From positions 16,240 to 80,239 of the forward strand of contig DCBQ01000005.1 in the NCBI GenBank assembly GCA_002313515.1: a DNA stretch of 64,000 nt, written 5' to 3'. Source of the stretch: Candidatus Saccharibacteria bacterium UBA1103 (lineage in GTDB: Bacteria; Patescibacteriota; Saccharimonadia; Saccharimonadales; Saccharimonadaceae). This document shows, piece by piece, positions 414-61,079 of the stretch (positions are counted from its first letter, which is position 1; each line of letters begins with the position of its first letter). The translations under genes were made by a program, and so were the position numbers. A model generated the notes under the pieces. The model made no database searches and was not told where the DNA came from. It saw only the letters and a list, made by a program, of their open reading frames with translations.

Positions 414-540
414 GTCCCCACCTATAAAGGTGGGGCAAGCAGTGGCAACAGCCACGCTGGGGTGGTTTTATTCGCTTCTCTTAAAATCAAATTTCACCTC
501 ACCCGGCGTAGACGCCTGCCCTCCCCGTCAAGGGGAGGGA
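414..540. repeat. Convergent pair of two-hairpin palindromic elements
   Basis: (+) copy 414-469: CCCCACC-TATAAA-GGTGGGG, GTGGC-AACA-GCCAC, GCTGGGGTGG tail. (-) copy 493-540: CCCTCCCC-GTCA-AGGGGAGGG plus GGCG-TAGA-CGCC. Confidence 0.8.
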
Positions 541-546
541 ATAAAA

Positions 547-2124
547 TTATTCTATGCCATATAGCGTCGCCTTGTACTGTTCACTGCCAGTGACCGGGTC
601 TCGGACGGTGATAGTGCGGACGGCTTTCCACTCCGACGTATTTAGCTTAGTGGGCGCATAAATTGTGTCGGTATTAGTGGTACCGGTGACCCAAATCTGG
701 TGATGTTCTTTGGCGAACCGATTCATATCCTTTATGGCGCGGTTGAACTGATTATCGCGTAACATGGCAAGTGACCCAGTGGGGTCGTTTTTAACGCTAT
801 CCCACAGGAAATAGGTTGGATGCTCCTTGCTGTCGTAGAAGCTGGCTTCGTAAAAGCCGTAGGGGCTATTAGAAATTATCGGGGTATTGCTATGGTCGGT
901 GGCTTGAATCTGCTGAATTACTTCGCCAGTTAAAACACTACTGCCGTTGAATTTGTTGTAATTGCCCTGGTGGTAGACCTGGTATATACCGTAGCTGAAG
1001 CAGGCGATAATTAGAACTAGGGTGGCGGGAGCTATCCACCAACTATGTTTATCGGATTTGTAGTTGGTAATCAGTACGGCAATTAGTACCGCCGTAAAGA
1101 TAGCGGCAGATAAGACATATCGATCAACGAAAGATGAGGTTAGAGGTGGCAGCGATAGTAACATCAGGAAAATTACTGGTGCTATTGCCATAGTTAGAAC
1201 CAGGTAAAAGCTCCGTCGCTCGGCACGATCGTAGCGGATTTGGTGTAGGTAGCGATAAACTAATACGCCAACTAAGATGATTGCAGTAAAGAACAGTACC
1301 GGTAGCCAACCGCTCGCCTGATTGCCTTGTAAGTAGAAGAATAACTCGGACAGGTAGTCGCTAGGTGTACTCGGGGTGACAGCGGGAATCCAGAAGCCAC
1401 TACTAACCGTACGGAACTGCGATATTACGGTTGGTACCCAGGGCAGGTATAGTCCGACCGCCACCACATGGGCAATAACCCACTCCTTACTGAAATAATT
1501 TTTAGCAAGCTTCTGGCCTTTTAGATCTTGAATTCGTAGGTAAATCAGGCGATAGACCCAGTGGCTCAACCAAATCACGGCGGTGAAGTAGTGCGTTAGC
1601 ATGCCTAGGTAAACTAGCACGCCATAAATAGCATAATCGCGTAATTTATGTGACCTTAGACCGTGCCACAACATTAAAGTGGCGGCTAGAACGATAGTGG
1701 TGACAACGGTGTACATGCGCGCTTCAATGCCAAACCGTACAAATAATGGAGAAATAGCCACCAAAAATACCGATAAAGCAGCGGTTTTGCGATTAAATAA
1801 CTTTTTTATTAGGAAAAATAGCAGAATTAGGGTAATTACGCCAAAGAAAACCGACATAGAGCGAAAAGCAATCGCCGATGTGCCGAATAAGCTAGTCCAG
1901 CCCTTTAGCAACCAATAATACAGTGGCGGGTGAACGTCCAAGGCGGTGTAGTGGGTGATCTCGGATAAATTATATTTGGTGATGTAGGCGCTAAAGGCCT
2001 CGTCAAACCAGATGGAGCTGGCGGTTAAGCGGGTCAGGGTAAGGGCGAGAAATCCGCCGATCGCAACCGCCAGTGCCGTTAGGCTACCCCATTTCGAATT
2101 AAAGAATTTGGCTGCACTTTTCAT
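547..2124 (-). CDS. Polytopic membrane glycosyltransferase, GT39/ArnT-like (PMT_2-type)
   Basis: 525 aa. Many predicted TM helices over the first ~390 aa, then a soluble C-terminal domain. Architecture matches ArnT/PMT-like lipid-linked sugar transferases. Confidence 0.6.
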   Translation of the reverse strand: MKSAAKFFNSKWGSLTALAVAIGGFLALTLTRLTASSIWFDEAFSAYITKYNLSEITHYTALDVHPPLYYWLLKGWTSLFGTSAIAFRSMSVFFGVITLILLFFLIKKLFNRKTAALSVFLVAISPLFVRFGIEARMYTVVTTIVLAATLMLWHGLRSHKLRDYAIYGVLVYLGMLTHYFTAVIWLSHWVYRLIYLRIQDLKGQKLAKNYFSKEWVIAHVVAVGLYLPWVPTVISQFRTVSSGFWIPAVTPSTPSDYLSELFFYLQGNQASGWLPVLFFTAIILVGVLVYRYLHQIRYDRAERRSFYLVLTMAIAPVIFLMLLSLPPLTSSFVDRYVLSAAIFTAVLIAVLITNYKSDKHSWWIAPATLVLIIACFSYGIYQVYHQGNYNKFNGSSVLTGEVIQQIQATDHSNTPIISNSPYGFYEASFYDSKEHPTYFLWDSVKNDPTGSLAMLRDNQFNRAIKDMNRFAKEHHQIWVTGTTNTDTIYAPTKLNTSEWKAVRTITVRDPVTGSEQYKATLYGIE

Positions 2125-2130
2125 ATGTTA

Positions 2131-2139
2131 ATTATAGCA
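2131..2139 (-). promoter_or_regulatory. Extended -10 box (TGcTATAAT), 6 nt upstream of ATG at 2124; leaderless
   Basis: Minus strand reads TGCTATAAT-TAACAT-ATG. Confidence 0.6.
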
Positions 2140-2150
2140 AAAGAGAAAGT

Positions 2151-2248
2151 CAGCTAGTGCACTTCTGCTACGAAGGACTCGCCTCCCTGTAGCACAGGAG
2201 AGGCGGGAGGCAGTCAGCCGTATCCTGAGGAGCGGAATGCGCTAGCTG
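2151..2248. repeat. Structured inverted-repeat element, family C, copy 1
   Basis: Outer stem CAGCTAGTGC/GCGCTAGCTG encloses hairpin CGCCTCCCTGT-AGC-ACAGGAGAGGCG and the block GAGGCAGTCAGCCGTATCCT. About 80% identical to 57646-57696. Confidence 0.6.
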
Positions 2249-2283
2249 GCATGAACTCTGATCTTGCTCATGTTTAATCATAG

Positions 2284-2292
2284 TGCTACAAT
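2284..2292 (+). promoter_or_regulatory. Extended -10 box (TGcTACAAT) for ohyA
   Basis: TGCTACAAT lies ~44 nt upstream of the ATG. SD GGAGGG at 2319-2324. Confidence 0.5.
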
Positions 2293-2335
2293 ATCCATGA
2301 TTGATTAAGAAACAAAAAGGAGGGAACTGAAAAAT

Positions 2336-4204
2336 ATGTACTACGCAAGTGGTAATTACGACGCCTTTGTGCGACCAAAGAAGCCAGAGGGTGTCGATAA
2401 TAAACATGCTTATATTATAGGTACTGGTCTAGCAGCCTTGGCCGCGGCAGTAGTACTGGTGCGTGACGCGCAGATGCCGGGCAAGAACATTCACATTTTT
2501 GAGAAGGATGAACTACCAGGCGGTGCTTGTGACGGTCGGGAAATTCAAGGCATTGGTTATGTCATGCGTGGTGGTCGCGAGCTAGATAACCACTATGAGG
2601 TGCTATATGATATCCTTCATTCCATTCCGTCACTAGAACGCAAGAACGCCAGCGTGCTGGATGAGTTATATTGGCTGAACCGCGAAGATCCCAACTTCAC
2701 CATGTGTCGCGCCACTGAAGAGCAGGGCAAGCCGGCTGTTGATGGTAAATTTGGCCTGAGTGATAAGGCGGCTATGGAAATCATGGCACTCTTCTTTACG
2801 CCAAATGAAAAGCTGTACAACAAGCGCATTGATGAAGTCTTTGACGATGAGGTCTTTAAATCCAACTTCTGGCTATACTGGCGTACCATGTTCGCCTTTG
2901 AGAACTGGCACTCTGCGCTCGAGATGAAGCTGTATATTAAAAGGTTTATTCACCATGTATCGGGTCTACCGGACTTTACAGCACTACGCTTTAGCCGTTA
3001 TAACCAGTACGAATCATTCATTCTGCCGATGGTCAAATACCTAGAGAAGGCGGGTGTACAGTTCCACTACAACACCAAGGTTAACGACGTCAAGATTGAA
3101 GTTGGCGGTCAGCGTGTAGCTAAGCGTCCACGCTCGAGTGTTGGTGAGGATACTATTTTGCGTATTCAACAAGAGCAGTTCCCGCGTAATCCGTATAGCA
3201 CGGACATCAAGAAGGTAGCTAAAGCCATTGTCATCGCCGATGCAGGTGGCGAGCATACTATTGACCTAACCGAGGACGACTACCTGTTTATTACACCGGG
3301 TGGTTGTGTGGAGAACGCTACTATTGGTTCGCAGAACGAGCCAGCAGCCTGGAACCCGGATCTAAAGCAGGGCGGTGGCTGGGACATGTGGCGCCGCATT
3401 GCCAAGCAAGATAAATCCTTTGGTCATCCAGATAAGTTCTGCTACGACCCAGAAGCCAGTAAGTGGATGAGTGCCACGGTGACGACCTTGGACAACGAGA
3501 TTCCGCCGTATATTCAGAATATTTGCCGCCGCGATCCGTTTAGCGGCCGCACGGTTACTGGCGGTATAGTATCAGTCAAGGATTCGAATTGGCTAATGAG
3601 CTGGACGCTAAATCGCCAGCAGCAGTTTAAGGATCAGCCGAAGAACCAATTGAGCGTATGGGTCTACGGTCTATTTCCTGATCAGCCAGGCAATTACGTC
3701 AAGAAACCAATGCGTGAATGTACTGGTAAAGAGATTTGTGAAGAATGGCTGTATCATCTAGGTGTGCCAGTTGACCGCATTGAAGAACTAGCGACTAATC
3801 ACGCTAACTCGGTGCCAGTGATGATGCCGTATATCGATGCCTTCTTTATGCCGCGTGAAGCGGGCGATCGTCCGGATGTCGTGCCTGATGGGGCAGTGAA
3901 CTTTGCCTTCCTGGGTCAGTTCGCCGAGGAACCGCGTGATGTAATCTTTACTACGGAATACTCAGTGCGTACAGCTATGGAAGCAGTGTATACACTATTC
4001 AATGTTGAGCGCGGCGTGCCGGAGGTCTGGAATAGCACCTATGACGTGCGCGATCTGGTTAATGCCTCGGTTGCCCTGCGTGATGGCCGTAAGTTGACTG
4101 ATATGGATCTGCCGTTTACACAGAAGCTAGTGCTAGAGAAGGTTATCCAAGCCGTTAAGGATACTGATATCGAGAAGCTGCTAAAGGAGTATAAAGCGAT
4201 TTAG
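2336..4204 (+). CDS. ohyA: Oleate hydratase (FAD-dependent fatty-acid hydratase, MCRA family)
   Basis: 622 aa. N-terminus MYYASGNYDAFVRPKKPEG...AYIIGTGLAALAAA (Rossmann GxGxxA) and overall length are typical of MCRA/oleate hydratases. Confidence 0.85.
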   Translation: MYYASGNYDAFVRPKKPEGVDNKHAYIIGTGLAALAAAVVLVRDAQMPGKNIHIFEKDELPGGACDGREIQGIGYVMRGGRELDNHYEVLYDILHSIPSLERKNASVLDELYWLNREDPNFTMCRATEEQGKPAVDGKFGLSDKAAMEIMALFFTPNEKLYNKRIDEVFDDEVFKSNFWLYWRTMFAFENWHSALEMKLYIKRFIHHVSGLPDFTALRFSRYNQYESFILPMVKYLEKAGVQFHYNTKVNDVKIEVGGQRVAKRPRSSVGEDTILRIQQEQFPRNPYSTDIKKVAKAIVIADAGGEHTIDLTEDDYLFITPGGCVENATIGSQNEPAAWNPDLKQGGGWDMWRRIAKQDKSFGHPDKFCYDPEASKWMSATVTTLDNEIPPYIQNICRRDPFSGRTVTGGIVSVKDSNWLMSWTLNRQQQFKDQPKNQLSVWVYGLFPDQPGNYVKKPMRECTGKEICEEWLYHLGVPVDRIEELATNHANSVPVMMPYIDAFFMPREAGDRPDVVPDGAVNFAFLGQFAEEPRDVIFTTEYSVRTAMEAVYTLFNVERGVPEVWNSTYDVRDLVNASVALRDGRKLTDMDLPFTQKLVLEKVIQAVKDTDIEKLLKEYKAI

Positions 4205-4216
4205 CTGTATAGAGAA

Positions 4217-4473
4217 GCCCGCCCCCCATCAGGGGCGAGAAACAGATTCTAATAGTGTCTGCGGCCTATGCTCAGATTTAAAGTCCCGCCCCATCAGGGG
4301 CGTAAGCTGTGACATGCACTACGCGTAAAACTTAAGTCCCGCCCCATCAGGGGCGGGCAAGCTGGTGCGTAGCACCGCTGGGTGGGGTTTGTAAACTCTA
4401 GTTAAACTAACTAATACTACAAACCCCTTCCGTCACGACTACGTCGTGCCACCTTCCCCTGATGGGGAAGGAC
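4217..4473. repeat. Mini-array of three (+) two-hairpin elements plus one convergent (-) copy
   Basis: (+) copies start at 4217, 4283 and 4336; the last is full length and ends GCTGGGTGGGGTTTGT. (-) copy 4419-4473: ACAAACCCC...CCTTCCCC-TGAT-GGGGAAGG. Confidence 0.85.
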
Positions 4474-4605
4474 TTTTGTTATTGACAACTAACACCATTA
4501 TTTCCTAGTGCTTGACAATAAAACATAAACGTGATAGTATTAATAATGTCGAACGAAGATAGAAACGGTTGACAAAGAAGATAGATAAAAACAGAAAGGA
4601 AGATA

Positions 4606-5001
4606 ATGGTTAAAAACCTAAACTCTATTAATAGTGCCAAAAATCAAGAGGCAATTGACAACATGAGCGAGCGCGAGCGTCGTAATGCTGGTTTAACGCG
4701 CGATCTAGCGATCGTGGCTACATCGGAAATGGCTTTAGCTAATCTGGACGACGTTAAGGGCATTAACTTTATGACGCACCGAAAGGCTAACGAAAAGCGC
4801 GCACTGGATCAGGCGGCCAACGAAGCCGGTGCGCAGAAAGAATATGCTCAGGAGGTAGAGAATGCCCCCTTTGGCAGTCACGAAGACTACGAGCAACGCC
4901 AAGCTACACGTGCCGACCGTTACGACGGTACACCGAACTTAAATGAGGACGAAGAGAAAACCGTTCAGGTAGTTAGTGGCGAGGCCACTAACTACGAATA
5001 A
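4606..5001 (+). CDS. Hypothetical acidic protein (131 aa)
   Basis: ORF with SD-like AAAGGAAG upstream and a rho-independent terminator downstream. No recognisable domain. Confidence 0.5.
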   Translation: MVKNLNSINSAKNQEAIDNMSERERRNAGLTRDLAIVATSEMALANLDDVKGINFMTHRKANEKRALDQAANEAGAQKEYAQEVENAPFGSHEDYEQRQATRADRYDGTPNLNEDEEKTVQVVSGEATNYE

Positions 5002-5028
5002 AACGTAGAGTAGCAATTACACATAGAC

Positions 5029-5056
5029 AGCCCTGCAGATATAGCAGGGCTATTTC
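5029..5056 (+). terminator. Rho-independent terminator
   Basis: AGCCCTGC-AGATATA-GCAGGGCT followed by ATTTCG. Confidence 0.6.
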
Positions 5057-5071
5057 GTGAATACGTCGAGC

Positions 5072-5121
5072 TTGACAAAAACGCTAAATCATGTATTCTA
5101 TATATAGATGCAAATTGCATC
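5072..5121 (+). promoter_or_regulatory. Sigma-70 type promoter followed by a perfect 15-bp palindrome (operator-like)
   Basis: TTGACA (5072-5077), 16 nt, TATTCT / TATATA, then GATGCAAATTGCATC (5107-5121). Confidence 0.45.
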
Positions 5122-5160
5122 CATAGCTCGCTTGGGCTAGCTCTTTAGAAAGATGGAAAG

Positions 5161-6192
5161 ATGGTTTTATTCATCATTAGTGTGGTCTTTTTGGTGATTG
5201 CTGTTGCCGCTGTGCTTTATGCGGTGACTAGGCGTCGTGGAATAGCGGCGGCTAAGTCAGAAGTGGCCGAAGCTAAAAAAGCCACCAAGGATGACTACGA
5301 CGATAGCGAATCTCACAGTCTAAAAAAGGCCAGGCATACATTAGCGTATCGGCAGGGCCAACGAATAAAAGGCGCCGTTGTAGCATGTGTTACGGCCATT
5401 ATTGGCGGAATCATGATGCTATTCTGCGTATTCTATACGCAGGATGCGGGCAACGTAGTCGTACTGCGTAACTTTGGTGGTTCGATTGCCGGCGTTTCAA
5501 AGGATGCTGGTTTGCACACTAAAGCGCCATGGCAGACTGTTATAACCTACGATGCGCGCAACAATCTGATTAACTTCTATGGTGCCGACACTGAGTACAA
5601 GGCAGATGGCGGTAGCTACGAAGGTAAGCAGGTTTCGATTAATGATAAGTCTGGCGCCAGTGCTAACGTTGACATTCAGGTAAACTATTCGCTTAACCCT
5701 GATGCAGCCGATGATCTGTATCTGAACTATGGCACGCAGAAAAGTATGACAGAGAAGTATGTCGGCAATGATCTGCGTTCGGTTACACGTGAAGTGTCGG
5801 GTCAGTTTGACACGATTACTATGCTGACTAACCGTAGTCAGTTTACTAAGGCTGTGCAGAAGGCACTGGAGACCAAGTGGAACAAGATTGGTTTGGTTGT
5901 CGAGCAGGTAAGCGTGCAGGATGTGCGCTATCCATCGTCAATTACAGAGGCTTATTCGGCGGCGCAGGCGGCTGAGGTTAACAAGCAAAAGGCTAAGAAC
6001 GAGCAGGAAACTGCTAAGGTTCAGGCCGAGACCAAGAAGATCGAGGCGCAGGGCGAAGCGGATGCTAACGCAGTGCTGAATAATTCACTGACTGATAAGG
6101 TACTGACGCAGAAGTATATTGATGCGCTGAAAAACGCCGATAATCTCACTGTAGTGCCGAACGGATCAGTTCCTATGATTCAAACTAAGTAG
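5161..6192 (+). CDS. SPFH/band-7 (prohibitin/HflC-like) membrane protein
   Basis: Two N-terminal TM segments, an SPFH core (..VVVLRNFGG..KAPWQTV..VQDVRYP..) and a coiled-coil AQ/AE-rich tail. Confidence 0.75.
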   Translation: MVLFIISVVFLVIAVAAVLYAVTRRRGIAAAKSEVAEAKKATKDDYDDSESHSLKKARHTLAYRQGQRIKGAVVACVTAIIGGIMMLFCVFYTQDAGNVVVLRNFGGSIAGVSKDAGLHTKAPWQTVITYDARNNLINFYGADTEYKADGGSYEGKQVSINDKSGASANVDIQVNYSLNPDAADDLYLNYGTQKSMTEKYVGNDLRSVTREVSGQFDTITMLTNRSQFTKAVQKALETKWNKIGLVVEQVSVQDVRYPSSITEAYSAAQAAEVNKQKAKNEQETAKVQAETKKIEAQGEADANAVLNNSLTDKVLTQKYIDALKNADNLTVVPNGSVPMIQTK

Positions 6193-6209
6193 CCATCGAT
6201 CACCTTAAT

Positions 6210-6238
6210 GGGCTATCCTTCATGGATAGCCCATTTTT
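6210..6238 (+). terminator. Rho-independent terminator
   Basis: GGGCTATCC-TTCAT-GGATAGCCC followed by ATTTTT. Confidence 0.75.
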
Positions 6239-6337
6239 ATTAAAAATAATGACATATTTTTATTAATTTGGCCTCCATTGGTTGTGGATTGCCTATCGTA
6301 GCTAATACGACCATGGGGCTCTACCGCCTTTCTGTTG

Positions 6338-6343
6338 TATAAT
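6338..6343 (+). promoter_or_regulatory. -10 box TATAAT, 7 nt upstream of argS ATG; leaderless
   Basis: TATAAT-ATAACTA-ATG. Confidence 0.5.
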
Positions 6344-6350
6344 ATAACTA

Positions 6351-8051
6351 ATGAATCAGTATGCGGATGAAGTAAGGCGAACAGTAAAAAAGCTGTTCGA
6401 TGTGGATGTGAAGGTGGAGTTGAGTCGGCCGGACCCGCAATTTGGAGACTATGCCACCAATGTGGCGATGCAGCTGGCCGGTCGACTACATCAAGCACCC
6501 CGGGCGATTGCCGAACAGATCAAGAACGAGCTAGACCAGAGTGGTACCTATAGTGAGGTTTCAATTGCGGGGCCAGGCTTTATTAACTTACGTTTGTCAG
6601 CTAAAGCCCTGAATCAAGATTTGGAGAATAAATTTAACAGCCAGATTCCGTTTGGCAATAACCAGGACGGGGCGGGCAAGAAAGTGTTGGTAGAATATCC
6701 CTCGACCAACATGGCAAAGCCGTTTTCTATTGGGCATTTACGACCGGCCAATCAGGGTTGGGCGGCACGTAATCTAATGAAAGTGACCGGCTGGGACGTG
6801 ATTACAGACAATCACCTGGGCGACTACGGATCGCCATTTGGTATCTGGGTGGTTGGATTTAAGAAGTTCAGTAGCGAGGAAGCGCTAAAACAGCGTGGGG
6901 TCTACGAGCTGGGCGATATCTATATCAAGACCAAGGCGGCCATGAAAGAAGAAGCGGAGGCAGGTAAACACGACCTAGCGGATGCGGCGCAGGGGTGGCT
7001 ATTAAAGCTGGAACAACATGACCCCGAGGCGGTCGGCTATTCTGAGCGTTTTAATAAAATATCGCTGGATCACATTCATGATGTCATGAAGCGGCTGGGC
7101 ATCAGTACAGATTACGAGCTGGGTGAAAAGTTCTTTGCTGAGAAGGGCAAAGCGGCGGTGCAGGACTTGCTAAACAAGGGCTTGGCCATTCAGAACCCAG
7201 ACGGCTCGGTAATTGTAGACCTGAATGATTATGGTATTAAGACCCCAATGCTGGTACTGAAATCTAATGGTGCGGCACTCTACGCTACGACCGACCTGGC
7301 CACCATGCTGTACCGCGACCAGACTTTTCATGTTGACCGGGTAATTTTCTGCGTTGGTAGCGAACAAAAGTTTTACTTCCAGCAGCTGTTTGCCATGGCA
7401 AAGAAAATTGGGCTGAAAACCGAAATGATTCACATGTGGTATGGCATGATTGATCAGCTGAACGAGGATGGCACGCGCGAGAAGATGTCCAGCCGCAAGG
7501 GCGTGGTACTGCTAGAGGAGCTATTAGATAAGGCCGAAGAGCGGGCGCGCGCCAATGCTAAGACGCCGGATCTATCTGATAGTGACATTAAAAAGATTGC
7601 GGTGGGGGCGATTAAGTTTAGTGATTTTGCCAACGACCGTCGTACCGGCATGCTGTTTGATTGGAACACCATGTTTAGCTTGACCGGATATTCGGGGCCG
7701 TACGTGCAGTATGCCGCCGTGCGGGTGAATAAGATTCTGTGCGACAATCCGATTCCGGAGGTTGATTATAGTGGTTATGACTACGAGCCTGAGAAGGCGG
7801 TGATTTTGAAGCTGCTGGATTATCCAAATATTGTGAAGCTGGCGGCCGATAACCTAGAGCCGCACCGCATTGCGACCTATATTTATGAGCTAGCAAAGGA
7901 GCTAAACCGCTACTACGAACACACACCGATTGCCACCGAGCAGGTGAATGAGGTGGAGAAGGCGGCGCGCTTGCATCTAATGCAGCACGTAGAATATGTG
8001 TTCAAACATGGTTTAGGAATTTTGGGAATTGAGATTCCGGAAAGGATGTAG
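6351..8051 (+). CDS. argS: Arginine--tRNA ligase
   Basis: 566 aa. Class I motifs (..PSTNMAKPFSIGHLR.. HIGH-like; ..KMSSRKG.. KMSKS-like) and a C-terminal anticodon-binding DALR domain. Confidence 0.9.
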   Translation: MNQYADEVRRTVKKLFDVDVKVELSRPDPQFGDYATNVAMQLAGRLHQAPRAIAEQIKNELDQSGTYSEVSIAGPGFINLRLSAKALNQDLENKFNSQIPFGNNQDGAGKKVLVEYPSTNMAKPFSIGHLRPANQGWAARNLMKVTGWDVITDNHLGDYGSPFGIWVVGFKKFSSEEALKQRGVYELGDIYIKTKAAMKEEAEAGKHDLADAAQGWLLKLEQHDPEAVGYSERFNKISLDHIHDVMKRLGISTDYELGEKFFAEKGKAAVQDLLNKGLAIQNPDGSVIVDLNDYGIKTPMLVLKSNGAALYATTDLATMLYRDQTFHVDRVIFCVGSEQKFYFQQLFAMAKKIGLKTEMIHMWYGMIDQLNEDGTREKMSSRKGVVLLEELLDKAEERARANAKTPDLSDSDIKKIAVGAIKFSDFANDRRTGMLFDWNTMFSLTGYSGPYVQYAAVRVNKILCDNPIPEVDYSGYDYEPEKAVILKLLDYPNIVKLAADNLEPHRIATYIYELAKELNRYYEHTPIATEQVNEVEKAARLHLMQHVEYVFKHGLGILGIEIPERM

Positions 8052-8054
8052 AAA

Positions 8055-8594
8055 ATGGACAAAAAGGCAAGTTTATTCTGGGTGGACCTAGAGATGACCG
8101 GGCTAGAACCGGATATTGATAAAATCTGTGAGGTTGGCGTGATTGCGACTGATTGGCAGTTCAATGAAGTAGCGCGCTACGAATCAGCGGTAAAGGTGGA
8201 TCGCGAGTTTATGGAAACCCGCATGACGGGCGAGTTCTGGCAGAAGAATCAGGCGAGTCACGACAATTTAATTAAGAATTCCACGTCGGCGGACGCTAAG
8301 ACGGCGGCGCAAGTCGAGAAAGAGCTAATTGACTTTGTGAACACTAATTTTGATACTACTAATCCGATTTACTTAGCCGGCAATTCGATTCACCAGGATC
8401 AGAAGTTCATCGAGCGGGAGTGGGTAGAGCTGAACAAGCTATTTAATTATCGCCAGCTGGACGTTAGCGCCTGGAAGATTATTTTTGAAAACCGGGGCGT
8501 AGTGTTTAATAAGCCAGAAGCTCACCGGGCCATGAGCGATATTGAAGGCTCGATGGAAGAGCTAAAGTATTATCTAGAAAGGGTAAAATTCTAA
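8055..8594 (+). CDS. orn: Oligoribonuclease (DEDDh 3'-5' exonuclease)
   Basis: 179 aa. Motifs FWVDLEMTGL, GNSIHQDQKFI and HRAMSDI are typical of Orn. Confidence 0.85.
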   Translation: MDKKASLFWVDLEMTGLEPDIDKICEVGVIATDWQFNEVARYESAVKVDREFMETRMTGEFWQKNQASHDNLIKNSTSADAKTAAQVEKELIDFVNTNFDTTNPIYLAGNSIHQDQKFIEREWVELNKLFNYRQLDVSAWKIIFENRGVVFNKPEAHRAMSDIEGSMEELKYYLERVKF

Positions 8595-8941
8595 TGGCGC
8601 TATCTGAATCGGATATCCGTGGTCAGATTGAAGCGTTGGGGGCGGTGATTGACCGCGAGCGCTCCACTGCCGAAAACGATATTTACGCAGTGCAGGGCGA
8701 AATGATGGCGGTGATTAGAAAGAATTCGAATCCGCTACAGTTATCGCTACGCTGTGATTACAATCTCGGTAAATTATTGCGCGACCAATACGAGTCGGTG
8801 CTAGAAGGACAACACCTAAATAAGAAACATTGGATAACTATTTTATTAACTGAACAGCTATCTGACCAGGACGTACACGACCAAATTCGTCACGCTTATG
8901 AGGAAACGATAAGGTTGATCGATAAAGAAGATAGTCTCTAG
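8594..8941 (+). CDS. YjbR/MmcQ-family protein
   Basis: 115 aa. ..LRCDYNLGKLL...GQHLNKKHWITILL.. matches the YjbR-family core. ATG overlaps the orn stop. Confidence 0.55.
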   Translation: MALSESDIRGQIEALGAVIDRERSTAENDIYAVQGEMMAVIRKNSNPLQLSLRCDYNLGKLLRDQYESVLEGQHLNKKHWITILLTEQLSDQDVHDQIRHAYEETIRLIDKEDSL

Positions 8942-8954
8942 CTAGAATAACTGG

Positions 8955-10190: not shown

Positions 10191-10197
10191 ACTTAAA

Positions 10198-10206
10198 ATA
10201 TTAACA
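10198..10206 (-). promoter_or_regulatory. Extended -10 box (TGtTAATAT), 7 nt upstream of ATG at 10190; leaderless
   Basis: Minus strand reads TGTTAATAT-TTTAAGT-ATG. Confidence 0.5.
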
Positions 10207-10233
10207 CAAGCGGCACTGATTCTCAATCTAATA

Positions 10234-10239
10234 TATAAT
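10234..10239 (+). promoter_or_regulatory. -10 box TATAAT, 7 nt upstream of dnaG ATG; leaderless
   Basis: TATAAT-ATAGTCA-ATG. Back to back with the divergent promoter inside a 56-bp spacer. Confidence 0.5.
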
Positions 10240-10246
10240 ATAGTCA

Positions 10247-12076: not shown

Positions 12077-12099
12077 CTATTGCATAGCCGATGTGGCTG

Positions 12100-12108
12100 T
12101 GGTAATAT
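12100..12108 (+). promoter_or_regulatory. Extended -10 box (TGgTAATAT), candidate rpoD promoter
   Basis: TGGTAATAT lies ~105 nt upstream of the rpoD start. rpoD has SD AGGGAG. Confidence 0.4.
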
Positions 12109-12213
12109 TTACTATGAGTATGGGCTTATTTTAGCTTGCGCGCATGAAGAAGCGCTGATGAAAATTCCAACACTATAAAATAAACAGCTAAGTTGCTAAG
12201 AAGGGAGTTTTGC

Positions 12214-13332: not shown

Positions 13333-13342
13333 TAACTTTAGT

Positions 13343-13398
13343 GTCCCGCCCTAGTGAGGGCGGGCAAGCTGGCGCTTTAGCGCCGCTGGGTGGGTTTG
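13343..13398 (+). repeat. Two-hairpin palindromic element, (+) copy
   Basis: GTCCCGCCC-TAGTGA-GGGCGGGC AAGCTGGCGC-TTTA-GCGCCGCTGGGTGGGTTTGG. It is read through by the over-extended track ORF 13341. Confidence 0.9.
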
Positions 13399-13409
13399 GC
13401 TGTATATGG

Positions 13410-13418: not shown

Positions 13419-13424
13419 ATACCT

Positions 13425-49526: not shown

Positions 49527-49562
49527 ACCCGCCACTTTAGGATCTCTCCTGCTGGGGCGGGT
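49527..49562. repeat. Degenerate hairpin-1 module of the palindromic repeat family
   Basis: ACCCGCC, then a 20-nt loop, then GGGGCGGGTAA. It lies 3' of the GT2 gene. Confidence 0.4.
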
Positions 49563-50732: not shown

Positions 50733-50734
50733 TT

Positions 50735-50790
50735 ACCTCCCTTTCGCAAAGGGAGGTGGGCGAGCTTTAGCTCGGTCGGTGGGTTCGACC
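50735..50790 (+). repeat. Two-hairpin palindromic element, (+) copy, CCTCCCTTT subfamily
   Basis: ACCTCCCTTT-CGCA-AAGGGAGGT GGGCGAGC-TTTA-GCTCG GTCGGTGGGTTCGACC. Confidence 0.8.
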
Positions 50791-50840
50791 TTCAATCTTG
50801 CGCTACAAACAGATTTTTGCTAGTATATAACTAGTCTCAT

Positions 50841-50952: not shown

Positions 50953-50961
50953 TGCTATAAT
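50953..50961 (+). promoter_or_regulatory. Extended -10 box (TGcTATAAT), 6 nt upstream of thrS ATG; leaderless
   Basis: TGCTATAATATAACCATG is identical to the 18-mer at 57729-57746. Confidence 0.65.
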
Positions 50962-50967
50962 ATAACC

Positions 50968-52794: not shown

Positions 52795-52803
52795 CTTCTA
52801 TTT

Positions 52804-52931
52804 CTTTCTCCTTGGTGTGGAGGGTAGGCGTTTACGCCGGGTGAGGCGGTTGCTTTAGCGCCCCCTACAGGGGGTTAGAGTATTTACACTATCGCCAGTT
52901 GGGTCCACCTCCTCTTTAAGGAGGAGGTATG
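52804..52931. repeat. Composite cluster of at least 3 palindromic elements between convergent thrS and the RCC1 gene
   Basis: ..GGAGGGTAGGCG-TTTA-CGCCGGGTGAGG.. is near-identical to 61050-61075. Also CCCCCT-ACA-GGGGGT and CCACCTCCTC-TTTAA-GGAGGAGGT. Confidence 0.7.
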
Positions 52932-52949
52932 AGCTGTGAATGTACTATG

Positions 52950-54422
52950 CTAAATTCCAGTATTCGGCGCAGCAATAGTTGGCTTCGAATCTACACTATT
53001 AGTCGCTGGCTTGGGTTCTGGTAATGAGGTCTTATCGATATACTCATAACCATCTTTTAATACAGTCTTATGCCCTTCGCTATCGGTAATGGTTACGTCA
53101 ACCTTGCCGGCAGCGTGAGCAGGAACGGTGACCTCGATAGTATTGCTGTCTTTGATGGTGTAGTTGGCTTTATTAATACCGAATTTAATTGCAGTGATAT
53201 CGTCGTAATTGAGGTGGGTGATACGATTGCTAACGTTGGTTGGGTTGAATACGCTGGCTTTGTCGTCATTGGCGTTTAATAGATACCAATCATTATTGCC
53301 GGCACTAATGATGCTACCGTTGGTTGCCAGAGCCATTGTTGCCCTTGAACTTGAATCGGTTTGCAAGCCTGAGTTTTTCCAGGCTGTCGTAACATCGACC
53401 GGATTGGCTGTAGTAGTGCTGGACGTAGATATTCCATATTGACCATAGGTGTTATCGCCCCAAGCTAAATAGCGGCCGTCGCTAGTTTCAGCGACATAAT
53501 AACCATTACCGACATGAATATGCCTAATTGTTGCATTATCAAATAGACTATTCAATTCAATTGGCGTATTGGGCGCTTTATCGTCAGCAGTGAGTCCTAG
53601 GCTGGTCGGATTACCTAGACTATAGAGTCTACCGTTCTCGTCAATAAAGTAGGTGCTGTCCCAGCTTGCTGCGGTGCTCATTATCTTATCATTTGCAAAA
53701 TAGCTAGATATGTCTGTTAGCGTGTTTTGCGAACCCCAGCTTGGAACTAGATTGCCATACCGATTGCTATTATTAGCGCCCGCCACTAAAACGCGGCCTT
53801 TGGTAGTGGTAATTATTAGCCCACAGTCTCCGCTGCATGCAGAAGCAATTTGCTCATTGTCCTTTAGCTGGTTATTTATGGTTGCTGGTGTTTTATTATC
53901 GCCAGTGCGTCCGTCGACCCCGTAGTAGTCAGAGCCCCATGTATATACAGAACCTCTATCGGTTATGGCAACCATGGTGGAGCCAACATAAAGTTGTCTA
54001 ATTCTACTATCAAACTTATCTGTAATATTAATAGGTTTGCGTGACCAGGTGGTGTCGCCCGTGGCGAGTTGGCCGGAATAGTTCTGTCCCCATGCCCAAA
54101 TGTGTCCATTGCTAGTAGTGGCGAAGAAGGAGTTGACTGATGTGGCGTATAGTTTGTCTACGGTGTCGCCGCCAAATTGGTCAGTGATATCAACGGGACT
54201 TAGATAATATGCGCACTGTTCTAGCCTATCGGGTGTACATTGATCGTTTGGGTAGGTTATACCTTCGTTGTTGGGAGTATAAATGGCGGCGGCATCGCCC
54301 CATATATAGACATGGTCGTCCTCAGATAGGGCAACCACATCGATGCCGTTATGGGCGAATTGTTTAATCTTTTTCTGCTTAGTAAATCCTTCACCCTTAA
54401 TGGTAAGGGTATTTTCTGCCAT
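52950..54422 (-). CDS. RCC1-repeat (beta-propeller) protein with a C-terminal IPT/TIG domain
   Basis: Repeated ..W(G/A)xNxxGQLG.. blades (e.g. VYIWGDAA, IWAWGQNYSGQLATGD, VYTWGSDYYGVDG, LAWGDNTYGQYG) and an IPT-like ..TIEVTVPAHAAGKVDVTITDSEG... ATG at 54422; the track start 54479 is a GTG. Confidence 0.65.
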   Translation of the reverse strand: MAENTLTIKGEGFTKQKKIKQFAHNGIDVVALSEDDHVYIWGDAAAIYTPNNEGITYPNDQCTPDRLEQCAYYLSPVDITDQFGGDTVDKLYATSVNSFFATTSNGHIWAWGQNYSGQLATGDTTWSRKPINITDKFDSRIRQLYVGSTMVAITDRGSVYTWGSDYYGVDGRTGDNKTPATINNQLKDNEQIASACSGDCGLIITTTKGRVLVAGANNSNRYGNLVPSWGSQNTLTDISSYFANDKIMSTAASWDSTYFIDENGRLYSLGNPTSLGLTADDKAPNTPIELNSLFDNATIRHIHVGNGYYVAETSDGRYLAWGDNTYGQYGISTSSTTTANPVDVTTAWKNSGLQTDSSSRATMALATNGSIISAGNNDWYLLNANDDKASVFNPTNVSNRITHLNYDDITAIKFGINKANYTIKDSNTIEVTVPAHAAGKVDVTITDSEGHKTVLKDGYEYIDKTSLPEPKPATNSVDSKPTIAAPNTGI

Positions 54423-54645
54423 TAATTGACCCACTGGTTTGTGATAGCGATGAGATGGACAGAGCAGAAGAGACACCACTGAAGCTCTGGCTTAAGCAAA
54501 TGATGCCAGCAGTAGCTGCTAGACCGGCAACGCTCAGCCCATATCTAACTTTACGTTTAATCCCGATAGATAATTTCCGATACTTATTTACGGTCCTATA
54601 ATCTTTAGCTATAGAACCAATGTCATTGAGCTTTTTGTGTCTCAT
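54397..54645 (-). CDS. Signal-peptide-only ORF, probably the detached 5' end of the RCC1 gene (frame-split)
   Basis: SD AAGGAG. MRHKK..NKYRKLSIGIKRKVRYGLSVAGLAATAGIICL is a Gram-positive type (YSIRK-reminiscent) signal peptide. It overlaps 52950-54479 in a different frame. Confidence 0.4.
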   Translation of the reverse strand: MRHKKLNDIGSIAKDYRTVNKYRKLSIGIKRKVRYGLSVAGLAATAGIICLSQSFSGVSSALSISSLSQTSGSINGRKYPYH

Positions 54646-54703
54646 ATCTCACCACTCCTTTGTATTTATATTACTGTTCCTGTTCGAGCCCATTATTTTT
54701 TGT

Positions 54704-54750
54704 AACCCTCCCGATTGCCTACGGCAATCTGCCCTCCCCTTGGGCGGGAC
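54704..54750 (-). repeat. Two-hairpin palindromic element, (-) copy, hybrid stem
   Basis: AACCCTCCCG ATTGCC-TAC-GGCAAT CTG CCCTCCCC-TTG-GGCGGGAC. Confidence 0.75.
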
Positions 54751-54888
54751 TATGGCTTCATTTAAAACGTACTAAACAAAAAATGGACACCGCAGCAGGG
54801 TGTTCGAAGTCCTTTGTAGTCAACTTGTCTCTAGTAGATTAGCACTAAAGCTAATATTGGAGCTGCGATGCCCAATGCTTAGCTTAAA

Positions 54889-54897
54889 TGTTAAAAT
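54889..54897 (+). promoter_or_regulatory. Extended -10 box (TGtTAAAAT) with no ORF downstream; candidate sRNA promoter
   Basis: TGTTAAAAT lies ~95 nt upstream of the terminator-like hairpin at 54986. Confidence 0.3.
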
Positions 54898-54985
54898 CCC
54901 TAAAAATTGCTACCAAAAATTGGTTGGCTAAATACTTCGAACACTTTTAATGTGTCAAACACTAGCGTAATATGTCAATAGATAA

Positions 54986-55027
54986 AACTTCCGGAAGCCA
55001 CCCAAAGCATCCGGAAGTTTCGTTCTT
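54986..55027 (+). terminator. Terminator-like hairpin upstream of the miaA promoter
   Basis: AACTTCCGG, a 16-nt loop, CCGGAAGTT, followed by TCGTTCTT. Confidence 0.4.
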
Positions 55028-55033
55028 GAGAGC

Positions 55034-55042
55034 TGATATAAT
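55034..55042 (+). promoter_or_regulatory. Extended -10 box (TGaTATAAT), 6 nt upstream of miaA ATG; leaderless
   Basis: TGATATAAT-AGGGAT-ATG. Confidence 0.6.
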
Positions 55043-57728: not shown

Positions 57729-57737
57729 TGCTATAAT
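57729..57737 (+). promoter_or_regulatory. Extended -10 box (TGcTATAAT), 6 nt upstream of ATG 57744; leaderless
   Basis: TGCTATAATATAACCATG is identical to the thrS promoter/start 18-mer. Confidence 0.65.
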
Positions 57738-57743
57738 ATAACC

Positions 57744-58424
57744 ATGAGTGGAGCGGATTCGAAATCGACCATTATTATTCTGGCGGTAGTATTTGTGGTG
57801 ACGCTATTGTCGATGATTCTACACGAGCTAATGCACGGCTTGACCGCGTATTGGTTGGGCGATGATACAGCGAAAGAAGAGGGGCGGTTGACCCTTAATC
57901 CGCTCAAACACATCGATCCGTTTCTGACGATACTGCTGCCACTAATCATGGCGGCAACTGGTGGTCCGATTTTTGGTGGCGCTAAACCAGTGCCCTTTAA
58001 CCCTAGTCGTGTCCGCGGCGGTGAGTGGGGCGCGGCACTGGTGGGAATTGCCGGGCCACTGACGAATCTAGTTCTGGCCTTTATCTTTTATGTCGTCACG
58101 GCGCTGCTGCCGGCGGCGATCGTGCAAAATCCCGTCGGTGAAATTGTTTACCTGTTTTGTCTATATGGTGTACAGGTAAATCTAGGCTTCTTTGCTTTCA
58201 ATATCTTGCCGGTGCCGCCACTTGACGGCTCGCGCTTGCTGTACGCCGTGGCGCCTGAACCGGTACAGCGCTTCATGGATATGATGGAACAGAGCTTGGG
58301 CTTGATTGTAATTTTCTTAATTGTGCTGTTTGCCAGTCCGATTATTGGCCAACTGATGCAGTGGATTATGCAAGGCGTACTGGCTGGATTTAACTTTATA
58401 CTATCACCATTGGGTATAGTTTGA
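57744..58424 (+). CDS. Site-2 protease family (M50) membrane metalloprotease
   Basis: Start moved from 57618 to MSGADSKS. HExxH motif (LHELMHGL), polytopic, ..NILPVPPLDGSRL.. second metal-ligand motif. Confidence 0.75.
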   Translation: MSGADSKSTIIILAVVFVVTLLSMILHELMHGLTAYWLGDDTAKEEGRLTLNPLKHIDPFLTILLPLIMAATGGPIFGGAKPVPFNPSRVRGGEWGAALVGIAGPLTNLVLAFIFYVVTALLPAAIVQNPVGEIVYLFCLYGVQVNLGFFAFNILPVPPLDGSRLLYAVAPEPVQRFMDMMEQSLGLIVIFLIVLFASPIIGQLMQWIMQGVLAGFNFILSPLGIV

Positions 58425-59479: not shown

Positions 59480-59529
59480 TGTCGCACAATGGTGCAAATG
59501 GTAGGTTTGGCAGCGGCGTGCTGATCCTG

Positions 59530-59538
59530 TGTTATAAT
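59530..59538 (+). promoter_or_regulatory. Extended -10 box (TGtTATAAT) for rnpB
   Basis: TGTTATAAT lies 5-7 nt upstream of the predicted P1 5' strand (TGCCAGA). Confidence 0.6.
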
Positions 59539-59542
59539 ACTA

Positions 59543-59912
59543 ACTGCCAGATGGCTAAATGATCGCTGGTGGGGTATGGCCCCGCGAGAGGAAAGTCCGG
59601 GCAGCATAGGGCAACAACAGTCGCTAACGGCGACCGAGGGTGACCTTAGGGAAAGTGCCACAGAAACTTATACCGCCTAGTTATTATCCGTGACGTTTTG
59701 GCGTCGCCGCTAGGTAAGGGTGAAAAGAGTAGGGCAAGAGCCTACAGTGCTATATGGTGACATATAGCAGGGGTAAACCCTGTTGGCTGCAAGGAGGCCA
59801 GGTTACGGGCGACCCGTCCGCTGGCCGATTGAACCGCTAGAGCGCGGTGGCAACGCCGCGAGTAGATAGATGATCATTCACGACAGAACCCGGCTTATCG
59901 GCTGTCTGGCAT
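59543..59912 (+). ncRNA. rnpB: RNase P RNA, bacterial type A
   Basis: Conserved GAGGAAAGTCCGGGC, ..AGGGTGAAA.., ..ACAGAACCCGGCTTA... P1 pairing GCCAGA/TCTGGC. End coordinates are +/-5 nt. Confidence 0.85.
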
Positions 59913-59934
59913 GAAATTATTATAATATTTAATT

Positions 59935-59977
59935 CCTTCTCTTTGACGGAGAGGGGCGCTTGTGCCGGGGCGAGGTT
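59935..59977 (+). repeat. Two-hairpin palindromic element, (+) copy (degenerate), 3' of rnpB
   Basis: CCTTCTCT-TTGAC-GGAGAGG GGCGC-TTGT-GCC GGGGCGAGGTT. Confidence 0.6.
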
Positions 59978-60072
59978 AAGACTAGAAGTGGCTACGTGGT
60001 TATAGCCAACTCTTTATTTTTATGGCTAAGCACTGTATACTATTATTGTAAACATAATACAGAAAGGTAAAA

Positions 60073-60957
60073 ATGGAACTGGCTATAGTAATTATAATTT
60101 TGGTGCTAGCAACGATCATTGCGGGTGCCAAGGTAGTGCGACAGCAAGACGTCGCGATTGTAGAACGTCTAGGTAAGTATAATAAGAGCCTAGGGGCGGG
60201 CTTTCATGTCATTATTCCTTACATTGATCGCGTTGCCGCGACTGTGCCATTACGGGTGCAGCAGAACGATCTGACAGTTGAGACTAAGACTAAGGATAAC
60301 GTGTTCTGTAAAATCGCTGTATCGGTGCAGTACCGGGTTGACCCAACTAAGGTAGAGGATTCTTTCTATAAGCTACAGCGTCCAGTAGCACAGATTGAAT
60401 CATACATCCAGGATGCCGTGCGTAGCGCCGTGCCGAATCTAGAGCTAGATGCCGCCTTTGAGCGTAAGGATGATATTGCGAAGAATGTGCAGGAAACGGT
60501 CAAAGCGGGTATGTCGGACTATGGCTTTATCATTGTCAACACGCTAATTACCGAGGTCAATCCAGATGCTAAGGTGAAGGCCAGTATGAACGAAATTAAC
60601 GCTGCTCAGCGTACCCGGGCGGCGGCGCAAGAGCTAGCAGAGGCCGATCGCATTAAAAAAGTGACGGCGGCTAAGGCGGACGCCGAATCGGCGAAGCTAC
60701 GTGGTGAAGGCTTGGCAGCAGAACGTCAAGCCATCGTGGATGGTCTAGTACGTAGCGTGAAAGGTCTACGCGCCAGTGGTATTTCTGAGGATAACGTTCT
60801 GGTGTTACTGATGCAGAACCAATACATGAATACTATGGAAACGGTAGCTGGTAGCTCGAACAAGGGCGTAATCTTTATGGACAGTGGTGCTGATGCGTCG
60901 GACAATCTGAAGCGTCAGATTCTGCAGGGCATGGAAGCCACTAAGATTAGTCAGTAG
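60073..60957 (+). CDS. SPFH/band-7 (stomatin/prohibitin-like) protein
   Basis: 294 aa. N-terminal TM, ..VVRQQDVAIVERLGKY.., SPFH core and an Ala/Glu-rich coiled coil. Confidence 0.8.
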   Translation: MELAIVIIILVLATIIAGAKVVRQQDVAIVERLGKYNKSLGAGFHVIIPYIDRVAATVPLRVQQNDLTVETKTKDNVFCKIAVSVQYRVDPTKVEDSFYKLQRPVAQIESYIQDAVRSAVPNLELDAAFERKDDIAKNVQETVKAGMSDYGFIIVNTLITEVNPDAKVKASMNEINAAQRTRAAAQELAEADRIKKVTAAKADAESAKLRGEGLAAERQAIVDGLVRSVKGLRASGISEDNVLVLLMQNQYMNTMETVAGSSNKGVIFMDSGADASDNLKRQILQGMEATKISQ

Positions 60958-60967
60958 GCAACTAGCC

Positions 60968-61079
60968 GAGCCCACCGGCTCGCCTACGACAATACCTCCC
61001 TTTTATAAAGGGAGGTATTGCTAAATCAAAATACCCTCTCCTTGACGGAGAGGGTAGGCGTTTACGCCGAGTGAGGTTT
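60968..61079. repeat. Convergent pair of two-hairpin palindromic elements between convergent genes
   Basis: (-) copy 60968-61017 (GCCCACCGGCTCG...TACCTCCCTTTT-ATAA-AGGGAGGTA). (+) copy 61033-61079 (CCCTCTCC-TTGAC-GGAGAGGG TAGGCG-TTTA-CGCC GAGTGAGGTTT). Confidence 0.85.

Follow-up and report, generated by a model that had tools for sequence, protein, structure and literature searches.

The DNA analysed here (the window) is a stretch of 64,000 nucleotides (nt) from Candidatus Saccharibacteria bacterium UBA1103, a member of the candidate phyla radiation (CPR) (contig DCBQ01000005.1, positions 16,240-80,239; assembly GCA_002313515.1). Its genes are densely packed, its G+C content varies between 0.44 and 0.50 per 4-kb step (about 0.48 overall), and it carries many housekeeping functions, including rpoD, polA, dnaG, argS, thrS, ftsK, RNase J, ribosomal protein and type IV pilus genes, as well as rnpB and seven tRNAs. 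Scattered among these genes, and in fpg inside one of them, are the members of a family of short palindromic repeats that forms the subject of this study. In all full copies three domains follow one another on one strand: a pyrimidine arm (Y) and a purine arm (R), which pair to make hairpin 1, and, beyond a second hairpin, a G-rich tail (H). The copies and their surroundings are listed below. Letters with numbers denote subtypes; the three sequences given for a copy are Y, R and H in this order; scores in bits refer to a covariance model built on type A and type B copies or, where so stated, to the Rfam family whalefall-1 (RF01762).

414-468 (+): full copy A3, CCCCACCT / AGGTGGGG / GGGGTGGT; 24 nt past tRNA-Pro; 63.2 bits, E 7e-15.
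495-541 (-): full copy D1, CCCTCCCC / GGGGAGGG / GGGTGAGG; 5-7 nt past the stop of the PMT_2 gene at 547-2124 (-); whalefall-1, 18.1 bits.
4217-4330 (+): two truncated tandem units (4217, 4283), each with hairpin 1 followed by degenerate sequence, no H domain; after the MCRA gene.
4336-4389 (+): full copy A2, CCCGCCCC / GGGGCGGG / GGGTGGGG; 73.9 bits.
4422-4473 (-): full copy B1, CCTTCCCC / GGGGAAGG / GGAAGGGG; 45.1 bits; 8 of 8 triads; tail-to-tail with 4336 (+), no minus-strand gene upstream.
13343-13397 (+): full copy A1; lies past the rpoD stop (13332) and ahead of the polA start.
17538-18575 (+): fpg/mutM open reading frame (ORF), 345 amino acids (aa), with an in-frame insert of 55-58 aa that is an element pair.
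17729-17780 (-): full copy B3 within fpg, antisense, reading ...PTGSATPTHLPLTGED...; 50.3 bits.
17849-17904 (+): full copy of type A within fpg, sense, reading ...SRPAKGGQAGDLVAAGWV...; 67.8 bits.
30293-30347 (+): full copy A1; 74.7 bits; fills the gap between the stop of a tlyA-like gene (30291) and that of ychF(-) (30358).
39236-39335 (+): two truncated tandem units (39236, 39291), no H domain; after a pilin-like gene.
39347-39400 (+): full copy A2, last unit of the tandem array; 73.6 bits.
44071-44122 (-): full copy C1, CCCCCCTTT / AAAGGGAGG / GGTGGGTTC; 6 nt past the xer(-) stop.
50736-50786 (+): full copy C1, within an 85-nt segment (50733-50817); starts 2 nt past a stop codon.
52804-52848 (+): type D copy with degenerate hairpin 1; 10 nt past the thrS stop, at the left edge of a 2.2-kb segment.
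52888-52929 (-): lone pyrimidine/purine hairpin, ACCTCCTCC / GAGGAGGT, with no recognisable H domain; adjoins the stop of RCC1(-).
54703-54750 (-): copy A5 with broken hairpin 1; 5' of the RCC1-like gene.
59935-59977 (+): full copy D3; 22 nt past rnpB.
60968-61014 (-): full copy C2, head-to-head with 61034 (+), between SPFH(+) and rplT(-).
61034-61078 (+): full copy D2, CCCTCTCC / GGAGAGGG / GAGTGAGG; whalefall-1, 18.8 bits.

The core of type A, GTCCCGCCC-N6-GGGCGGGCAAGC, has six exact matches in the window and none in 100 shuffles, and a general repeat search clusters the same copies. Run over the whole window with filters off, the covariance model gave 13 matches at E<0.01, picked up types C and D at weaker scores, and brought no strong copy beyond those noticed in the earlier, sequence-only reading of this DNA. 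That reading had counted at least 20 copies at 13 loci. Our census of 16 full copies, four truncated copies and one lone hairpin at 13 loci agrees with it, except that 49527-49562, a 7-bp hairpin with a 22-nt loop that no model matched, was rejected as a member. At about one full copy per 4 kb, the density is as unusual for a reduced genome as had been thought. Monomers measure 45-57 nt and begin with GTCC, ACCT or TCCC; loop 1 has 3-7 nt, and the connector between R and H, itself a covarying hairpin, 13-26 nt. Head-to-head dimers of about 115-130 nt are frequent and always combine two different subtypes: B(-)/A(+) in fpg and at related loci L001, L019, L021, L024 and L028 (L-numbers designate related genome or metagenome loci, L031 being a sister species and L004-L013 including strains of the same species), and C(-)/D(+) at 60968/61034. 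Tandem arrays with a period of 54-62 nt occur at 4217-4389, at 39236-39400 and at L007 16680-16800; their upstream units retain hairpin 1 without hairpin 2 and H, and the last unit alone is complete. The two arrays in the window were considered as CRISPR mini-arrays and rejected as such: they have three units of 54-56 nt only, the would-be spacers are related to one another and to hairpin 2 (common ACATCTAAC), and no CRISPR family of Rfam reached its gathering score, the only lenient match being CRISPR-DR57, at 12.6 bits against 39.

Both hairpins are upheld by compensatory change, as the sequence-only reading had proposed for the stems. In an alignment of 49 distinct copies from the window and its relatives, 93.1% of stem cells are paired, against 75.9% in shuffles and 40-54% with slid partners, and 15 of 17 stem pairs show changes on both sides; these figures come from an alignment fitted to the model, which favours structure. 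The purine arm is 98% paired within hairpin 1. The stems of hairpin 2 are highly varied (GGCGC/GCGCC, CACGAC/GTCGTG, GATTGC/GCAATC, AACGAG/CTCGT and others), hypervariable in sequence and yet a hairpin in every case, and it is this variety that puts the structure beyond doubt despite the fitted alignment. In 14 of the 49 copies hairpin 2 ends in a GNA triloop closed by C-G. Taken as a sign of folding in DNA, these triloops proved too weak an indicator, since G[CUUG]C loops, which are good in RNA, are present too.

The most informative part of the repeat is its tail. Described at first as a mere G-rich end, it covaries with hairpin 1: across 18 distinct subtypes H mirrors the 3' arm, R. The following pairs illustrate the relationship:

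R GGGGAAGG, H GGAAGGGG
R AGGTGGGG, H GGGGTGGT
R AGGGGAGG, H GGTGGGGT
R AAAGGGAGG, H GGTGGGTTC
R AGGGAAGG, H GGATGGGT
R AGGGGAGC, H TGAGGGGT
R AAAGGGGGC, H TGGGGGATC

With H set against R in mirror register, 131 of 148 positions in the 18 subtypes form canonical triads, compared with 72 of 148 in direct register. A G in R lies opposite G in 99 of 104 cells, an A lies opposite T or A in 32 of 38 and never opposite G, and an interruption by C or T is answered by T in all six cases. No more than one non-canonical triad occurs in 17 of the 18 subtypes, C2 having two; this count sets aside T opposite C/T interruptions and omits the terminal C of the 9-position C and E2 subtypes. When tails were exchanged among 12 subtypes, a subtype's own tail fitted 91.8% and the tails of other subtypes 77.4%; the observed value was attained in none of 100,000 permutations, in a test that overstates independence because the subtypes are related by descent. 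The corresponding figures for a direct-repeat model are 78.5% and 72.8%. In type A, the first base of R (A or G), which closes loop 1, tracks the last base of H (T or G). A sequence-blind descriptor of class II triplex geometry, consisting of a pyrimidine/purine hairpin with a mirror third strand 8-32 nt downstream, found 10 sites in the window against a shuffle mean of 0.15.

Two simpler relationships were rejected. That the tail directly repeats the 3' arm is disfavoured by the triad counts above, and in every copy the best mirror match of the tail to R equals or exceeds the direct-repeat match. Watson-Crick/GU pairing of the tail with the 5' arm is feasible only for symmetric arms such as GGGNGGG; it falls below the mirror model in asymmetric subtypes and, indeed, equals or falls below it in nearly every copy, and it gives no account of the covariation between the first position of R and the eighth of H. 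Direct and inverted repeats arise by replication and recombination, whereas mirror repeats do not. That a mirror relation has outlasted sequence change thus speaks for a constraint on structure, with the tail running antiparallel to R. As far as sequence can tell, such covariation marks H as a reverse-Hoogsteen third strand. The sequence-only reading was right to recognise subfamilies; at least 18 subtypes differ in a concerted way in all three domains.

The copies are insertions rather than conserved functional sites. This is illustrated by fpg, in which the insert of 55-58 aa separates the conserved blocks ...GKLLIIDL and LLCHLKMTGQ.... Among the aligned homologues it is found only in the window protein (345 aa) and the three closest to it (347, 345 and 325 aa); nearly all other Fpg homologues listed have 282-304 aa, typically 289, and one has a 14-aa remnant. 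At the DNA level, the fpg genes of related loci contain a minimal B(-)/A(+) dimer (L028), a B(-)/C(+)/A(+) arrangement (L026) or an empty site (L029). Further in-frame copies, dimers or monomers, occur in relatives, in genes for a UvrD-like helicase (inside the UvrD_C domain), an acyltransferase, a PIN-TRAM protein and a methyltransferase (in the middle of its domain as well as close to the N-terminus); the reading frames of fpg and of these four genes are intact despite the copies. The insertions in the helicase and the methyltransferase (L017, L018) are dimers, as is that in fpg of L028, and the dimer seems to be a unit of insertion. Outside genes, the rpoD-polA junction is filled in the window (13343) and empty in L026.

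The sister species L031 is syntenic with window positions 40967-63952 at about 77% nucleotide identity. With filters off, the covariance model found no match in three syntenic 21.8-kb loci of that species, compared with nine copies in the window counterpart. At the 50736 site the 85-nt segment 50733-50817, directly past a TAA stop, is missing from L031. The structural differences between the window and the sister species are all edged by copies. A 2.2-kb segment (52794-55036) carrying an RCC1/TIG-domain gene is missing in L031, where miaA directly follows thrS; copies lie on both of its borders. The SPFH/Band_7 gene at 60112-60947 is inverted relative to L031 16734-17569 and is flanked by 59935(+) and by 60968(-)/61034(+).

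Variation is also seen within the species. A metagenome contig in ENA (ERZ808291 NODE_2, 209 kb) is 100% identical to the window, and nine further assemblies of the same species are 99.5-99.99% identical to it. At the 54703 locus L007, L008 and L011 have two tandem copies and the other strains one, the only multi-base variant in 13 kb of ten strains. The neighbouring RCC1-like gene is split or shortened in the window, in the interval 54397-54645(-) with indels at 54412 and 54417: it reads as 509 aa from a GTG start, is split into ORFs of 82 aa and 490 aa in identical strains, and forms a single 564-aa ORF in L007, L008 and L010, a 1-nt deletion difference near a short A/T run. The split gene could be a pseudogene or a frameshift polymorphism. 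Just beyond the right end of the window (L004-L013 5500-7508) most strains have about 2 kb with no called gene; nhmmer found no repeat copy in that interval.

In the reference genome collection the core repeat pattern occurs in a comparable context in only one other genome, the metagenome-assembled genome of an uncultured Candidatus Saccharibacteria (L001); two further matches, in high-GC genomes, were attributed to chance. A pattern scan of metagenomes yielded 12 loci with the repeat. At L001 5734-7279 and L019 4312-5856, in the other Saccharibacteria genome, three B(-)/A(+) dimers are interleaved with small genes over 1.5 kb, sharing a conserved spacer (ACAGATTGG[C/T]TGCTAT) in a layout like that of a cassette array; one of the small genes appears, from its translation inspected by eye, to encode a DUF559/Vsr-like endonuclease domain. 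A search of the literature on repeats in Saccharibacteria found nothing relevant.

Most copies in the window start 2-25 nt past a stop codon or the end of a tRNA or of rnpB. The sequence-only reading had placed nearly all copies there, often as convergent pairs between convergent genes. The first part stands for most of them; the second needs revision. The pair 17729(-)/17849(+) lies inside fpg, others lie in coding sequence of relatives, 54703(-) is found 5' of a gene, and 4422(-) follows no gene at all. There is one copy each, not a pair, between tlyA and ychF and between the pilX-like gene and xer, and the pair between SPFH and rplT is head-to-head rather than convergent. GC skew in the window (0.08-0.15) is positive in all 4-kb steps and the + strand holds most genes. 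The entire window would thus belong to a single replichore, so that within it any strand bias of the repeats is inseparable from that of the genes. A repeat search of the window also brought up TGCTATAAT-like extended -10 boxes (50953-50987, 57729-57763, 18875-18912, 50796-50833 and 13420-13445), situated a few bases upstream of start codons or of tRNA-Val; their recurrence near starts suggests that 5' leaders are very short or absent in this organism.

Taken together, we favor the view, with a probability of roughly 0.65, that the copies are small, non-autonomous, recently spreading DNA repeats of triplex type, belonging to a Saccharibacteria lineage of the CPR, and that they are not terminators of the genes that they follow. 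Their conserved design is that of Y, a short loop and R forming hairpin 1, followed by a very variable hairpin 2 and a G/T/A-rich H that mirrors R. On single-stranded DNA, H could occupy the major groove of hairpin 1, antiparallel to R, and form G.G-C, T.A-T and A.A-T triads; this would be a class II purine-motif intrastrand triplex in which hairpin 2 takes the place of a 3-nt second loop. Purine-motif triplexes do not form with RNA, a DNA-only nature for which we rely on the literature (PMC4666352). One could envision the fold arising transiently whenever DNA is single-stranded in replication, transcription or transposition, and being recognised as such, either by selection or by some copying machinery. 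The head-to-head dimers, with their outer third-strand ends (...AACCC[A/C]CC ... GG[T/G]GGGTT...), look like the unit that enters coding regions, in the manner of a REPIN. The repeats would then be selfish passengers, tolerated mainly right behind stop codons: copies mostly survive there because insertion is presumably least harmful at such places in so compact a genome. The few in-frame copies would be tolerated in surface loops, and local rearrangement might be promoted as a side effect.

Several observations weigh against this interpretation. Many arms read GGGNGGG, which is the same in both directions, and only asymmetric subtypes can tell a mirror from a direct repeat. Type D is a poorer fit, its three subtypes having one non-canonical triad apiece; several H assignments took the best-scoring offset; and the kinship of the subtypes inflates the permutation test. 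As for mobility, a Pfam scan of the 43 window ORFs revealed neither a transposase nor any other gene that might mobilise the repeats, the gene calls of L004 include no transposase domain, and no target-site duplication could be defined from filled and empty sites. An rve-type (DDE) integrase/transposase gene does exist at L026 16761-17975, near fpg; the 21 kb there hold only the three fpg copies, and the gene probably belongs to an ordinary insertion sequence, no link with the repeats having been seen. In Escherichia coli, where single strands of the comparable TMECO repeat fold into a stable triplex in vitro, dimethyl sulfate footprinting in vivo detected no stable triplex (PMC4666352). Finally, all eight solo copies in the window are co-oriented with the adjacent gene, most of them within 25 nt of its stop, an arrangement that an RNA-level role predicts likewise.

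Such a role is the strongest of the alternatives, although we consider it unlikely. It supposes that the two hairpins and a short U-run act in RNA, either ending transcription as an intrinsic terminator or blocking 3' exonucleases, and that the repeats have spread for this function. Besides position and orientation, it can call on the 2-4 T residues after the tail, on hairpins that fold well as RNA (z-scores of -2.7 to -7.7), and on the covariation itself. However, no T-run directly follows the hairpins. When intrinsic terminators were defined as a GC-rich stem followed within 0-2 nt by at least five T in eight, a scan of positions 1-20000 did not call the sense copies; what it recovered was limited to a fragment at 17887-17900 and, in two copies, hairpin 1 read from its antisense side. 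Canonical terminators are present in the window, at 6207-6235 and at about 59985-60025, the latter being an ordinary hairpin with T-run that comes after the rnpB copy at 59935(+). Furthermore, the sister species has plain hairpin and T-run terminators at the sites of window copies, including the xer site (44071), and no repeat there. The proposal of a terminator or mRNA 3' stabiliser, one of the functions suggested when the family was first noticed, is weakened by these comparisons. Nor does it account for in-frame copies in fpg and four other genes, or for several copies at other loci that are apparently antisense to the upstream ORF; over all loci, with dimers included, about eight copies are sense and eight antisense in co-directional regions by rough ORF calls, and orientation, strong as it is in the window, is an ambiguous sign of a role in RNA. 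RNA base pairing does not account for the mirror relation between tail and purine arm, and the related E. coli elements have no terminator activity (PMC4666352).

A more specific RNA hypothesis, for which we see very little room, is that the copies encode, in whole or in part, a small structured non-coding RNA of the whalefall-1 type. At gathering level Rfam recognised only rnpB and the tRNAs in the window; in a lenient search whalefall-1 was the sole consistent match, aligning end-to-end, through hairpin 1, hairpin 2 and a GgGuGAGG tail, with the type D copies at 61031-61078(+) and 495-541(-) (18.8 and 18.1 bits; E 0.006-0.013 in searches of 111-251 bases). Whalefall-1 is known from a metagenome only and was rated as certainly an RNA (Weinberg et al. 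2010, PMC2864571). The scores amount to half of the gathering score of 37, neither the window nor 148 kb of related loci contains anything that attains it, and some 20 copies in 64 kb, in both orientations, some within coding sequence and none in the sister species, are unlike a small RNA. The relationship might rather be read in the other direction: we suspect, judging from the consensus and not from the seed alignment, that whalefall-1 is another repeat of this kind.

Equally improbable is a G-quadruplex, in DNA or RNA, assembled from the G-runs of the purine arm and the tail with hairpin 2 as a long central loop. Type A has the four tracts of three to four G that this would need (GGGGCGGG ... 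GGGTGGGG), but those of types B, C and D have only two G, the mirrored A/C/T interruptions answered by T or A would be superfluous (in type C, AAA in the arm is answered by TT in the tail), and the purine arm is already engaged in a strongly covarying hairpin. We give no greater weight to the idea that the copies are sites for a sequence-specific host protein, with the G- and C-rich blocks as half-sites, by analogy with REP/BIME elements and gyrase or IHF. The three related blocks of each copy, the intergenic location and the inverted pairs would suit it, but at least 18 subtypes differ in all three blocks and remain mutually matched, and hairpin 2 is never absent however much its sequence changes, which argues for a constraint on nucleic acid structure rather than a fixed protein site. 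A protein that recognises the structure is compatible with the triplex-repeat interpretation.

It is tempting to go one step further, and to propose that the three-way covariation over at least 18 subtypes reflects an intrastrand DNA triplex under selection in living cells, forming the core of a mobile element that is copied through folded single-stranded DNA, and that whalefall-1 is likewise a DNA element of this kind rather than an RNA. We advance this tentatively, considering it somewhat more apt to fail than to hold. If true, the long-puzzling BoxC/PIT repeats would acquire a testable reason to exist. The E. coli triplex repeats are nearly invariant, so far with only biophysical evidence in vitro for the triplex and no function found; diverged subtypes in which hairpin and third strand stay matched would allow the covariation argument, long applied to RNA secondary structures, to be extended to a DNA triple helix. 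The findings would also portray selfish repeats in the act of invading a very small CPR genome, where they have entered genes for DNA repair and for a helicase and border both an inversion and a 2.2-kb indel, which bears on the plasticity of reduced genomes. More practically, present triplex finders, confined to loops of at most 6 nt, overlook this class, and one or more Rfam "RNA" families may have to be reinterpreted.

Knowledge of intrastrand triplex repeats (BoxC/PIT/TMECO), found in E. coli and other Proteobacteria, dates back to the 1990s. The family had not been recognised as a named one in the sequence-only reading; by its domain order and triads it belongs to the PIT/BoxC kind, as a class II potential intrastrand triplex repeat with a hairpin as second loop, and its behavior resembles that of REP/BIME and Rickettsia palindromic elements (RPE), as that reading had suggested. 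Potential intrastrand triplex (PIT)/BoxC/TMECO motifs are credited to Hoyne and Maher (2000) by Holder et al. (2015, NAR 43:10126; PMC4666352), where the class II order Y-R-H and the triad rules are given, along with the E. coli motif (BoxC, PIT and TMECO being the same), CCCTCNCCC N3-6 GGGNGAGGG N3 GGGNGAGGG. TMECO has neither promoter nor terminator activity, occurs as inverted pairs of two different subtypes, and its loci are more rearranged between strains (PMC4666352). The likeness extends to class II order with an antiparallel G/T/A third-strand domain in last place, to stems of 7-9 with G.G-C, T.A-T and A.A-T triads and one mismatch tolerated, and to dispersed copies with inverted pairs always of two different subtypes and strain-variable loci; type D (CCCTCTCC TTGAC GGAGAGGG ... 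GAGTGAGG) nearly spells out the TMECO blocks. Neither repeat has a known function or mobilising enzyme. In contrast to the 3-nt second loop of TMECO, ours is a hairpin of 13-26 nt. The definition used by the finder ITxF admits stems of 6-15, at most one mismatch and loops of 1-6 nt (0-10 nt in Hoyne et al.); the order and triads of our repeats agree with it and the R-to-H connector exceeds its loop limit. This long second loop explains why the exact TMECO pattern has no match in the window and why finders of the ITxF type miss the family. If loop 2 is allowed to span 10-30 nt and the stems are set to 8, the TMECO pattern has two matches in the window and none in shuffles; a blastn search of 5,426 E. 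coli genomes with a type D copy gave no match. The repeats also differ from TMECO in their many diverged subtypes, which keep the three-way match where TMECO is almost invariant, in their density (about 1 per 4 kb, where K-12 has 23 in 4.6 Mb), in having some copies in frame inside genes where TMECO is always intergenic, and in their host, a CPR bacterium.

Whalefall-1 shares with our repeats the succession of two hairpins and a conserved GgGuGAGG tail, and, read by eye, its consensus first stem (UCuCuCC/GGaGaGA) and tail obey the mirror rule over six positions; it differs in that the window copies score only 18-19 bits against 37 and in having been described as an RNA, not a DNA repeat. With Rho-independent terminators the resemblance is one of GC-rich hairpins just past stop codons and a few T thereafter, but the T-run of the repeat is short and set off from both hairpins by a G-rich domain of 8-9 nt. 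Like REP/BIME/REPIN elements, the repeats are short GC-rich palindromic units, mostly extragenic and at gene ends, whose subtypes combine in inverted dimers. Unlike REP and REPIN sequences, they do not have a conserved GTAG at the 5' foot, GTAG-like letters being found only around the loop of hairpin 2; they possess an additional third-strand domain and a second hairpin, and they have copies within coding sequence. No gene for a RAYT (Y1/HUH transposase) was found among the 43 window ORFs scanned or the L004 gene calls. RPE, reportedly described by Ogata and colleagues in 2000, are said to insert in frame in protein genes of a reduced genome. In-frame insertion and, judging from the ORFs, translation as extra loops (in Fpg, the UvrD-like helicase, the methyltransferase and the acyltransferase) liken our repeats to them by behavior alone; the hosts are unrelated, and the Saccharibacteria units are shorter, of triplex-type design, and mostly intergenic.

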